53,996 nt of DNA. Origin: Candidatus Bathyarchaeota archaeon BA2 (GTDB lineage Archaea; Thermoproteota; Bathyarchaeia; Bathyarchaeales; Bathyarchaeaceae). Positions 49,991-53,996 of this stretch are shown piece after piece (position 1 is the stretch's first letter; every line of letters begins with the position of its first letter). The notes under the pieces were generated by a model. That model was not told where the DNA came from. It saw only the letters and a program-made list of their open reading frames with translations, and searched no databases. The DNA lies in assembly GCA_001399795.1 (NCBI GenBank), contig LIHK01000010.1, positions 1-53,996 on the forward strand, in the 5' to 3' direction. The translations under genes were made by a program, and so were the position numbers.

Positions 49991-51598
49991 CTACCTCATC
50001 TTCAGTTTTATCAATTGATAAGCAAGATGTGCTGGAAGAGACGAGGCAACTTTTATTTTTCCGCTTCTAGCGTCTCTTATCATAGTCGGCAAGTCATAAT
50101 CATAATCATCTCGGCACCTGCAGATCAGTTCCCTTGCCAGCTTGATTCCGTACGAAAAGATGAACTTTAACCCGTATTGGGCGACTCTGCCTCTTATAGA
50201 CAAGTAAGAATATTCCTTAACCAGAGTGGAAGCCCAGTTCAGGTTGTGCTCCCAGCATTTCAAATAAAGCTCATAGTGTTTGTTCGTCATTCCCTCCAAT
50301 ATGAAAGAATCAGCTCTGTTTTTCAGTCCCCCCATGGATACGAGGAAAAGCGGAACAATCAGGCTTTTGAAGGGTTTCAACTCCTCCATAAGCTCGATTG
50401 TGAGGTCAACGTCCTTCTCAGTTTCTCCCGGTAAGCCCAGAATCAAGGTGCCGCACGGAAGCCAATAGTTCCTAGACAAAATTTCAAAAGAATCCACAAC
50501 TACCTCAGGCCAGTCTTCCGGTTTGAAGGGTTTACACTTTCCAGCCATATGCATCTTAATCAATTTGGGACTGCCAGTTTCGATACCAGTCTGGGCGGCG
50601 GTCCAAGGAGCCTTCTCGCCTAAACCCAAAATGTTTGAGATTTCTTCAACAACGTCCGGTGCATCTAAAACCGAGGAAAGCGCTATGTGACTTAGGCTTG
50701 TCATTTCAACGCCCGGATGATTTTGCACAGTTCTGAAAAGGTTAATCACAGCCTCCTTGTTAACTCTGAAACCCTTTGCTTTGTACCTTAACACGTCCTC
50801 GGCGTGTAGCAATGGTTGTCTGCCCGCCCTAAGGTTTACTTCAACTTCCTTCAAAATGTGCTTGAGGGAAAGGCAGCGATATACCTGGAGTGTTGGGACG
50901 CAAAAGGCGCATCCCCTTCCGCATCCTCGAGCGATTTCAACCAATCCACATATTGTCGGACCCTTAATAATCGGTATTTCTTCTTCAGAAACTACTTCCC
51001 CCCGCACAATTTCTGGCAGTGTTTCACTGTTCACAGCCTTCTCGAAGACGGGCCCTACAACCTTCTCTCCTTCTCCCACGATTACGCAGTCTATCCCGAG
51101 TTCTTTTCGAGCCTCGACGCTTTCAAGCTGCCACGCGCCTGGCCCCCCAACAACGATTTTTGGTTTAAACCTCTTTATGGCGGGGTGGTTCAAAAGCTCC
51201 CTAAACTTGATAGCCATGTATGCTTCTCCACCCAACAGCCCTGTGAAGGAGGAGGTGGCGGGGCCTATACCCAATGGGTCGGTTTCCGCGATTCCAACAA
51301 CTTTTGTGTCAGGTCCCACGACTTTGTCAATGTGTTCTGGATGTGCGACGATTATGTCTTCTCTCTGGAAACCATAGTTCAGCAACGTAGCCTCCACTTT
51401 CCTTATTCCGCATGGAGCATACCTGGCAGATCCGTCTCTGTTTACTTCTACAGAGGGGCAGAGCAAGGAAAAGTAGAGCCTATCTGAAATCAACCCTTTA
51501 GGTACGCAAGCGCTGAATCCCAGAAAAAGGCCGCCATAGTACTCACTCATCAAAGTACGATCGGCGGTGAGGACGATTTTGTAACCGCTGTTTGACAT
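49991..51598 (-). CDS. B12-binding-type radical SAM protein
   Basis: VVGGPGAWQ, EIARGCGRGCAFC, GIETGS, LGLPGET. Confidence 0.88.
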   Translation of the reverse strand: MSNSGYKIVLTADRTLMSEYYGGLFLGFSACVPKGLISDRLYFSLLCPSVEVNRDGSARYAPCGIRKVEATLLNYGFQREDIIVAHPEHIDKVVGPDTKVVGIAETDPLGIGPATSSFTGLLGGEAYMAIKFRELLNHPAIKRFKPKIVVGGPGAWQLESVEARKELGIDCVIVGEGEKVVGPVFEKAVNSETLPEIVRGEVVSEEEIPIIKGPTICGLVEIARGCGRGCAFCVPTLQVYRCLSLKHILKEVEVNLRAGRQPLLHAEDVLRYKAKGFRVNKEAVINLFRTVQNHPGVEMTSLSHIALSSVLDAPDVVEEISNILGLGEKAPWTAAQTGIETGSPKLIKMHMAGKCKPFKPEDWPEVVVDSFEILSRNYWLPCGTLILGLPGETEKDVDLTIELMEELKPFKSLIVPLFLVSMGGLKNRADSFILEGMTNKHYELYLKCWEHNLNWASTLVKEYSYLSIRGRVAQYGLKFIFSYGIKLARELICRCRDDYDYDLPTMIRDARSGKIKVASSLPAHLAYQLIKLKMR

Positions 51599-51726: not shown

Positions 51727-53214
51727 TCATTTCTTCTTGAAGAATAACCAGTTCTTCCTTCCTTTAAACCTCACCAAACAATAAATGCCTCTAAGCTTGT
51801 TGCCTTTGATTTCGAAAATCAACTTGTCTTCATCTCTTTCCTTCAAGACGTACTGCCCATTATCCCAGATTTCCACGGTGCCAGCGCCGTATAGACCTTC
51901 TGGAATAGAATTAGACACTAGCATAGACCCTGCGAAGTAGTTGTTATTGTCTTGAACGTGAATGTCGTATCGCTGTTGGCTGCGAATCTGTTTGCTACTA
52001 GCCTTCTCAAGTGCCACAATCCTTGCAGGAACGACATTTTGCTCTCCTCTTTCACCCATCCATTCAGAATGATAGCGACGAATGTAGGTCTTATACCTGA
52101 GCTCTTTCAAGATGAAATTGTTTATTAATGTAAGAAACCTCATGGAACCAACTTTGCTCAAATGAATAAAATACCCTCCGGCACTTTTCTTCCTTGGCTT
52201 TTTATGATATACCTTGGCCTCTAATTGCCATTCATCATTCAGAAAATCGGCGATTAAATTGTTCTCTTCCTTTGTGAAGCCGTGTGTACAAAGCTCCACG
52301 TATTTGCTCTGTGCAAGGTATCCATCATCCATGTACCATACAGCCAGACCACGCTCGTCTAGCATAGATAGAATTTCCTTTGTCATGGCCTTCTTCCCTT
52401 CATTGTAGAAGCGTTGATAAAGATCTAGTAGGCTTACGTCTGTGAAACGAAAGGAATAAGAGTCGCTACCTTTCCTCGCCCTGATCCTCGCTTTTGGCGC
52501 GAGTTGGTTACGTACGAACTCCAGGTAACCTTTTTGACCTCCAGCATGCGTAAGCTCGTAATGTGGCACATGTGTATTGCTTGGCTGCTCTAAATGCGCG
52601 TCTCCAAGGATCGTTCCCAGCAATATCTGTATTTGTTCATCGCCCCATCTCATTCCGAGAACAAGGATAGTGTCTCCAACTTTAAGGGCTCCTGCTGGCT
52701 TTAAACCCGTAGGGGTGTAAATCATGTGGTTGGGGGTTACTGTTATGATGCGCCTTCCACCATGCTGTCCTGGAACACGGATTCTTATGAAATCTTTTGT
52801 TCTTCCATTCCTGAACCACCCGACGATGGGTTTCCATTCTAGTTGATCTGTCGTTAAATTGTATGAAAGAACATTCGCCCTCAGCTTTTTGTTGACTATC
52901 TCGCCTATATTCACTGCACCTTTATCCGTTATAATCTTAGTATAGAATTCAAAGCAACCTTCAAAATTTGCGTAGTCAACGGGGTGATCTCCCACCTGCA
53001 CCGCAAGTCTTTTTATGCCTTTCTCTGTGGGAGGTGTTTTGGGGATTGCCCAGCTTCTGAGAACTCCATCCATTTCCAGTCTCAAGTCGTAATGTAAACG
53101 TCTGGCTTGGTGTTTTTGAATAACGTAAATGTTTCCTCCGCTTGTTTTTTCGCCACCTTTCGGCTCGTTTGTTTTTTCAAAATCTCTTTTCTTCCAGTAT
53201 TCTTTGAGCCTCAT
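51727..53214 (-). CDS. Stand-alone LigD 3'-phosphoesterase precursor containing an intein (146-aa spliced product)
   Basis: RDF...[34 protein letters not shown]|[16 protein letters not shown]. Confidence 0.9.
51910..52956 (-). mobile_element. 349-aa intein with LAGLIDADG endonuclease
   Basis: Cys1 (CFEFYT), block [14 protein letters not shown] and AVWYMDDG, block [22 protein letters not shown], +1 Ser. Confidence 0.93.
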
Positions 53215-53307: not shown

Positions 53308-53996
53308 TTGTTCAATTACGGGGGACATTATACGTCGCTTGTTTGGTTGTATAGTCTAGCGAGTGTCGTCATTGTTAGTTTAATTTCTCTAGTCGGTGTG
53401 TTTACTTTTTTAATAAAGGAAGAAAAATTAAAGAAGATGCTCTTGTATCTCGTAAGTTTTTCTGCTGGAGGACTTTTCGGAAACGCCTTTATTCACTTAA
53501 TCCCTGAAGCAGCAGGAAAGAACGGTTTTGGATTACAGGCATCCTTATACATTCTGATTGGCATCATTGCCTCCTTTATTATAGAGGAGATTCTCCAATG
53601 GAGACACCGCCATATACCCACATCAGAGGGACATCCCCATTCGTTTGCCTACATGACTCTTTTTGGCGACGCTGTCCACAATTTTATAGACGGGCTCATA
53701 ATAGGTGGAAGCTACTTGGCAAGCATACCAGTGGGACTAGCCACAACCCTAGCCGTAGTTTTCCACGAGATTCCTCAGGAAATCGGACACTTCGGCATCC
53801 TGATATACGGAGGATTCAACAAATCTAAAGCGCTTTTCTTCAATTTTTCAACCGCCATCACGGCAATATTTGGAGCCATCGTGGCCCTCGGCTTAGGTTT
53901 TTACATTCAAAGTTTTTCAAGGTTTTTTCTGGTACCCTTTGCTGCAGGTAACTTCATTTACATAGCCGGTTCAGATTTGATTCCAGAACTTCGTAA
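53308..53996 (+). CDS. ZIP-family metal transporter, 3'-truncated by window
   Basis: AFIHLIPE, HNFIDG, HEIPQEIG, SDLIPEL; start uncertain. Confidence 0.88.
   Translation, partial: MFNYGGHYTSLVWLYSLASVVIVSLISLVGVFTFLIKEEKLKKMLLYLVSFSAGGLFGNAFIHLIPEAAGKNGFGLQASLYILIGIIASFIIEEILQWRHRHIPTSEGHPHSFAYMTLFGDAVHNFIDGLIIGGSYLASIPVGLATTLAVVFHEIPQEIGHFGILIYGGFNKSKALFFNFSTAITAIFGAIVALGLGFYIQSFSRFFLVPFAAGNFIYIAGSDLIPELR

Follow-up and report, generated by a model that had tools for sequence, protein, structure and literature searches.

Known stand-alone 3'-phosphoesterases (PEs) of the LigD type are uninterrupted proteins. MbaPE of Methanosarcina barkeri (3P43), CkoPE (3P4H) and the PE of Methanocella paludicola (5DMP) fall into one length class and carry the same six catalytic residues. 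Inteins of RecA, such as that of Mtu RecA (PI-MtuI) and related ones, are built on a class 1 HINT domain with Cys at position 1 and a TxxH motif in block B; in some, the HINT domain is accompanied by a LAGLIDADG_2 endonuclease. The same endonuclease domain occurs in the free-standing, intron-encoded enzymes I-SceI and I-WcaI. Here we analyse a gene in which a PE and such an intein are found together. It lies in a 53,996-nucleotide stretch of Candidatus Bathyarchaeota archaeon BA2 (contig LIHK01000010.1, positions 1 to 53,996 of the forward strand), hereafter the window. The stand-alone LigD-type PE gene of this Bathyarchaeia archaeon very probably harbours a class 1 homing intein with a working LAGLIDADG endonuclease.

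The gene (51727..53214) is one intact open reading frame of 495 codons plus stop, coding for a 495-aa precursor made of N-extein, intein and C-extein. All its parts lie on the minus strand of the window, whose numbering is used throughout. The LigD_N profile (PF13298) matches the frame in two separate stretches and reaches 117.6 bits with the intein still in place (E = 3.5e-34; cut-off 31.1). TIGR02777 (LigD_PE_dom) scores 171.1 bits against a curated cut-off of 144, which identifies the host as a LigD 3'-phosphoesterase. PF03161 (LAGLIDADG_2) matches aa 196-353 with 110.9 bits (E = 8.4e-32; cut-off 25), PF14890 (Intein_splicing) matches aa 99-435 and TIGR01445, the intein N-terminal region, aa 87-167 (E = 1.8e-10). 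These E-values rule out chance for both the PE and the intein domain matches.

The extein aligns end to end with the intein-free M. barkeri PE (3p43, E = 9e-43). Residues 3-86 and 436-494 of the precursor fall on residues 3-88 and 89-150 of 3p43, where 88 and 89 are adjacent, and both extein halves align in the same contiguous manner to CkoPE (3p4h) and to the PE domain of Pseudomonas aeruginosa LigD (2lj6). The insert is thus exactly aa 87-435 (51910..52956), placed in frame, and relatives with empty alleles exist. It begins with Cys and ends in Ser-Asn, with Ser436 as the +1 residue. The junction reads DHPVDY81-ANFEG86|S436-IPEGLYGAG, five residues past the catalytic Tyr81. The initial annotation, drawn from the letters alone, had read the gene as a stand-alone LigD-type PE interrupted by a full LAGLIDADG intein, splitting the FEG|(S/T)IPEG segment a few residues past a DHPxxY motif, ending in Ser-Asn and more than twice the size of its host; the profile matches, the structure alignments and the lengths (intein 349 aa, extein 146 aa) bear out each of these points.

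The N-extein (aa 1-86; 52957..53214) contains all six catalytic PE residues, as seen in the alignment to 2lj6, 3p43 and 3p4h. Four of them belong to the metal and phosphate motif H35-x5-H41-Y-D43-L-R45 (53080..53112) and two to H77-P-V-D-Y81 (52972..52986), just upstream of the splice junction. Through 2lj6, residues H35, H41, D43, R45, H77 and Y81 correspond to H42, H48, D50, R52, H84 and Y88 of P. aeruginosa LigD, and all six are invariant in 25 aligned sequences. Their roles have reportedly been worked out by mutagenesis in the Shuman laboratory and from the 3N9B structure. The C-extein (aa 436-495 and the stop codon; 51727..51909) opens with the codon of the +1 nucleophile Ser436 (51907-51909).

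The N-terminal half of the HINT domain spans aa 87-191 (52642..52956), as delimited by TIGR01445 and by fold matches to the inteins of Mtu RecA (2in9) and NpuDnaE (4kl5). It carries the block A nucleophile Cys87, invariant in 25 of 25 sequences, and the block B motif T160-P-N-H163 (52726-52737), in which H163 is invariant and T160 nearly so. The C-terminal half covers aa 390-435 (51910..52047). Its blocks F and G extend from Y416-D417 to S434-N435 (51910-51969), with D417, N423, N425 and L432-N435 invariant. A Cys in block F together with a WCT triad would mark a class 3 intein; block F here has the invariant Asp417, as in class 1. The C-terminal Asn and the +1 Ser (N435|S436) are present in 32 of 32 PE-site inteins. 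The penultimate His of block G, usual in class 1 inteins and not obligatory, is replaced by Ser434 in all 32. The block F His is replaced by Asn424, a position that holds N, H, S or Q across the PE-site inteins.

Between the two halves lies a monomeric, two-motif LAGLIDADG_2 homing-endonuclease domain (aa 196-353; 52156..52629), recognised by PF03161, by its fold and by the selection acting on it. Motif 1, LLGTILGD205AH (about 52588-52626), and motif 2, LAVWYMD296D297G (52315-52347), both retain their acidic residues (LGD205 and MD296D297G), and these positions show little or no variation among 48 relatives and among the 17 full-length PE inteins. I-SceI and I-WcaI share this PF03161 domain, are superimposable on it and keep the acidic residues of their LGD and MDDG motifs. 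They differ in being free-standing, whereas the endonuclease of the PE intein is nested in a HINT domain and its target is predicted only.

An AlphaFold2 model of the precursor, built on 25 homologues, has a mean predicted local distance difference test score (pLDDT) of 84.7. Foldseek searches with it returned three groups of matches, which mark three modules: PE, HINT and endonuclease. The HINT module matches 2in9 and 3ifj (root-mean-square deviation, rmsd, of 2.2-2.3 Å over about 100 residues), 4kl5 and 8ubs; compared with the Mtu RecA and NpuDnaE inteins its rmsd is 2.2-2.5 Å. The endonuclease module resembles I-SceI and I-WcaI with TM-scores on the target of 0.65-0.69 (E = 1e-10), and the whole intein-endonucleases PI-PfuI and PI-SceI were matched as well. 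The PE structures 3n9d, 3p43, 3p4h and 5dmp were also found, but at an rmsd of about 20 Å, so that the model is silent on whether the extein halves assemble before splicing.

From this anatomy we infer the following course. The HINT domain of the 495-aa precursor would fold and promote an N-S acyl shift at Cys87, aided by T160 and H163 of block B. The resulting thioester would be attacked by Ser436. Cyclisation of Asn435, with D417 of block F assisting and without a penultimate His, would then release the intein, and an O-N shift would link G86 to S436. The predicted products are a 146-aa PE with the restored FEG-SIPEG segment and a free 349-aa endonuclease. The endonuclease would cleave PE alleles that lack the intein, across the sequence coding for FEG|TIPEG, and through recombinational repair the empty allele would receive the intein and some 10-15 codons of its flanks, that of Ser+1 among them.

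The insertion site is not confined to this genome: about 30 public metagenomic archaeal proteins carry an intein at FEG|S. A large protein search yielded about 22 full-length relatives of the same architecture, 53-83% identical, and roughly nine PE proteins, each about 300 aa long, with an endonuclease-less mini-intein at the same position. The metagenome-assembled genomes (MAGs) they come from are labelled Promethearchaeota, Nanoarchaeia, Nitrososphaerales/Nitrososphaeria, Thermoproteota, Korarchaeota and Odinarchaeia. The pattern FEG|C…LVSN|SIPEG is common to 25 aligned homologues, and to 32 by motif. Across the PE-site inteins Cys1 (C87), the block B His (H163), the block F Asp (D417), the terminal Asn (N435) and Ser+1 (S436) are invariant. 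The deletion end-points differ between the mini-inteins P0024, P0025-31 and P0032, which suggests that the endonuclease was lost more than once. A long match in a Methanosarcina genome (L007), considered as a further mini-intein, turned out to be an ordinary PE with a long upstream frame.

Public records name these homologues 'DNA polymerase ligase N-terminal domain-containing' or 'hypothetical' and never mention an intein; such annotations overstate the size of the protein and miss the element. No NCBIfam 'intein-containing' model for PE turned up in the profile search. In the searchable literature, including the 2016 intein census without its supplements and with InBase outside the search, we found no PE or LigD intein. 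It is therefore plausible that both host and site are undescribed. The suggestion of the initial annotation that the site is new is plausible as far as description and curated models go, though not in the sense of a single case, since about 30 public proteins share it.

Within the archaeal phylum the element is sporadic. The PE gene is present in 50 of 60 relatives of the same family and order, and every copy is intein-free, since the two halves match contiguous DNA in all 50. Only three of 401 sampled genomes of the phylum have the intein: this one and two of one other genus, at 61% identity. A contig search with an alignment of the PE-intein family likewise recovered intein-free PEs almost exclusively. 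Between the extein and the intein-free orthologues of the archaeon's own family identity is 76-88%, and in three genomes of that family (L086, L089 and L091; 76-78% identity) the divergent ZIP-transporter neighbour is kept beside an intein-free PE. Together, the extein identity and the kept neighbour indicate a precise insertion into a resident chromosomal gene.

The intein and its host gene have different histories. The closest inteins are 88%, 81% and 76% identical to this one, while their exteins reach only 73%, 78% and 61%. Synonymous divergence (dS) from P0002 is 0.45 in the intein and 2.49 in the extein; from P0004, 0.83 and 1.39; from P0005, 1.74 in the intein with the extein saturated. 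Compared with P0002, nucleotide identity is 0.62-0.75 in the two exteins and 0.85-0.95 along the intein, and the step falls within about 10-15 codons of each junction. Judged from these comparisons, the intein is a recent horizontal acquisition.

Filled and empty alleles also differ at the +1 position. The empty site of relatives reads …GCAAACTTTGAAGGA|ACAATCCCTGAGGGACAA…, and among the empty alleles of close relatives the +1 residue is Thr in eight and Lys, Ala or Val in one each, never Ser. All 32 intein-bearing alleles have Ser. Such a distribution is the one expected from co-conversion of the +1 codon with the intein. The ratio of nonsynonymous to synonymous divergence (dN/dS), at 0.09-0.15 for the HINT domain and 0.07-0.13 for the endonuclease, shows purifying selection on both parts of the element.

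We aligned public metagenome contigs to the region. In three sediment metagenomes (X3, X5 and X7) contigs join position 51892 to 52958 and skip the intein exactly; the 18 letters between the two joins encode TIPEGQ. X3 also contains a 1290-nt intein-bearing contig at 94% identity. Filled and empty alleles thus coexist in the same sediment communities. Extein-like sequence is far more abundant than intein-like sequence in marine-sediment, sediment and subsurface metagenomes.

These data bear on whether the intein is a fixed remnant, which splices, has a dead endonuclease and is inherited only vertically. The hydrocarbon metagenome from which the genome was assembled shows the intein-bearing form only, at a depth of 54, and the composition of the intein is that of its host, as a fixed remnant would have it. 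The LAGLIDADG acidic residues are nevertheless kept and the endonuclease has a low dN/dS. Moreover, the intein dS lies far below that of the extein with sharp steps at the junctions, and in other communities empty alleles persist beside filled ones. We therefore regard a remnant as unlikely.

Several observations do weigh against an active homing intein in a functional PE gene. With only the filled allele in the source metagenome, homing is not presently observable in that population. In the sediments, extein and intein depths are about 2400 and 177 in X3, and about 1000 and 3-7 in X5, but they sum several organisms at >=85% likeness (at least 85%) and give rough allele frequencies only. The G+C content of the intein (0.436) equals that of the host gene and is close to the genome's 0.442, so that composition gives no sign of recent arrival; a foreign origin argued from composition was set aside for want of any signal. 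The divergence of the extein mostly predates the insertion, and its low dN/dS is no proof that PE has functioned since the invasion. Lastly, two usual helpers of Asn cyclisation are gone, namely the penultimate His (now Ser434) and the block F His (now Asn424).

This last point could mean that the insertion no longer splices and that PE is effectively inactivated, the endonuclease being kept since it still spreads. About 10 of the 60 relatives lack PE, an accessory enzyme whose loss may be tolerated. Against this stand the remaining splicing residues, invariant in 25-32 diverged alleles that include old mini-inteins unable to home, and the dN/dS of the HINT domain. The exteins are intact, with the six catalytic residues present. 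The ending is also common elsewhere. An exhaustive search with the intein alone gave 5481 relatives at E <= 1e-3 and 98 at <= 1e-30; among 137 extracted relatives, 75 end in SN, 55 in HN and 7 in GN. As the commonest ending of the clade, SN is no peculiarity of this copy, and it is the majority form among these related inteins, which sit in essential hosts such as RecA and helicases and must splice. The clade presumably splices without the two usual helper histidines, and a non-splicing insertion is in our estimate highly improbable.

In Methanocella paludicola, PE acts alongside Ku, a ligase and a polymerase. The title of its structure entry (5DMP) makes it a component of archaeal non-homologous end joining (NHEJ). 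In the present genome, a 1.46-Mb MAG of 92.5% completeness in which the PE gene is chromosomal and single-copy, neither Ku (no PF02735 match) nor the primase-polymerase part of full LigD was detected; given the completeness, their absence is not certain. Three ATP-dependent DNA ligase genes are present (C17, C13 and C6, the last of 586 aa), and the two that were scanned, C17 and C13, have the DNA_ligase_A N, M and C domains. No repair genes adjoin the PE gene. With neither Ku nor the LigD polymerase detected, general healing of 3' ends is a likelier role for this PE than service in a Ku-dependent end-joining system.

The initial annotation had further raised the possibility of splicing-gated control of break repair. 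In such a scheme PE would stay inactive until a DNA damage, redox or temperature signal, and 3'-end healing would be gated by splicing. The precursor is plausibly inactive, since the insertion lies five residues from Tyr81 and keeps the catalytic half apart from the strands that the last 60 residues contribute. The loss of both helper histidines could slow Asn cyclisation, and some RadA, RecA and SufB inteins are documented to splice conditionally (PMC5874633). The population and evolutionary evidence, however, fits a selfish homing element and lends the proposal no support. The intein is absent from all 60 relatives, and those that keep the same PE do without it, which argues against an adopted role; it occurs in under 1% of the phylum sample and was acquired sideways and recently. 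Its endonuclease is maintained by selection, as a selfish element requires and a switch does not. We recognised no sensor feature, and with no Ku or LigD polymerase domain found in the genome, there is no evident classical end-joining pathway that splicing could gate. A conditional switch therefore appears quite improbable to us.

To place the homing intein among its relatives we turn to the wider clade. The PE-site inteins form a single cluster at 50% identity, and beyond a gap the next relatives stand at 27-40%. In a tree of 160 inteins with Shimodaira-Hasegawa-like approximate likelihood ratio (SH-aLRT) support, the 23 full-length PE-site inteins are one clade with support of 100. The hosts of the 48 nearest relatives include RecD-like helicases (7), RNA ligases (7), phage portal proteins (6), RecA (4), phage Mu F-like proteins (4), SNF2 helicases (3) and LigD_N proteins (3).

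A resemblance to bacterial RecA-type inteins had been noted from blocks F and G. It is real: RecA inteins with LAGLIDADG_2 (2in9, 3ifj) are the best HINT match in the PDB by sequence and fold, and metagenomic RecA inteins are about 30% identical over the entire intein, endonuclease included, and also have Ser at +1. It is not special, however. RecA inteins make up 12 of the 137 relatives and are dispersed over the tree rather than forming the nearest branch, and for this reason we rejected them as the source. They differ further in their host, RecA instead of a 146-aa PE, and in their ending, which is His-Asn in 11 of the 12 and Ser-Asn in the PE intein. The insertion sites look loosely alike, GVMFG|SPETT in RecA (P0040, P0044 and P0066) and ANFEG|SIPEG in PE (52957-52971 and 51895-51909), a likeness that may have eased a host jump or may be due to chance.

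Nearer to the PE-site clade, though weakly so (SH-aLRT 21), are the inteins of P0127, P0150 and P0164. They have the same LAGLIDADG_2 and HINT architecture, and their hosts are likewise nucleic-acid end-repair enzymes. The host domain, an ATP-dependent DNA ligase, and the insertion site differ, identity is about 35% and the sister relationship is unsupported. All three are phage-like proteins of 1.7-2.0 kaa ending in an XkdF-type prohead protease. Other domains in them are a 2'-5' RNA ligase and a D12 methyltransferase.

A second intein site in PE domains was found in P0173, P0136, P0124 and P0202. Here a related SN|S LAGLIDADG intein lies inside the catalytic His-x-His-x-Asp motif of PE, with the junction …QKHDAKxAG|C…LVSN|SH(F/Y)DLRLE…. 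Some of these hosts are PE-ligase(-polymerase) fusions of up to 3163 aa. The second-site inteins are a clade of their own, with support of 99. That the two PE sites are sisters, as hopping between sites within one host would produce, was considered and rejected: each is monophyletic (100 and 99) and no supported node joins them.

With two sites seen, FEG|S and xAG|SH(F/Y)D, one may speculate that the PE domain is an unrecognised multi-site hot-spot for inteins. An SN-ending LAGLIDADG clade would then shuttle among end-repair enzymes (PE, ATP-dependent DNA ligase and RNA ligase) of archaea, bacteria and tailed viruses. We consider this unlikely. In a bolder version, the unspliced, inactive PE could bias the repair of endonuclease breaks towards recombination, that is homing, and away from end joining.

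The homing intein described here extends the known range of intein hosts to a small accessory enzyme of DNA-end healing, and its position beside the catalytic Tyr conforms to the rule that conserved active-site segments are where inteins insert. It opens no new mechanism, being a selfish element of a known kind that is abundant in public metagenomic data. Its interest rests on the clean population picture and on growing indications that the PE domain offers inteins more than one target site. A single allele family includes alleles that are empty, alleles that were invaded and had their flanks co-converted, and mini-inteins that lack the endonuclease, an unusually clean natural example of the homing cycle. 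In addition, Ser-Asn inteins with Ser+1, including minis of ~150 aa, could suit protein engineers who want Cys-poor splicing junctions.

Upstream of the PE gene and divergent from it lies the ZIP-family metal transporter gene (53308-53994, plus strand). The downstream neighbour (49991-51598, minus strand) codes for a 535-aa protein that is radical-SAM-like by its CxxxCxxC motif, and G+C rises there to 0.52-0.54. Two frames of 206 and 223 aa on the opposite strand (50757-51487, plus strand) overlap it and have the look of shadow frames, not of genes.

No second or related copy of the PE intein was found in the same genome by tblastn. The genome has four more clear inteins, unrelated to the PE intein at BLAST level. 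The other intein matches are at C38:13988-14227 (-), C35:6395-6694 (-), C31:9375-9623 (+), C28:34-162 (+) and C45:3714-3824 (+). A fifth N-terminal intein match is sub-threshold (18.5 bits, cut-off 24.5) and belongs to an 1825-aa protein with an intein-like …VIVHN|S ending. When scanned without the insert, three of the four clear hosts match a Cbf5/TruB-PUA pseudouridine synthase, a myo-inositol-1-phosphate synthase and ribosomal protein uS12, and the fourth resembles, by eye, a family B DNA polymerase.

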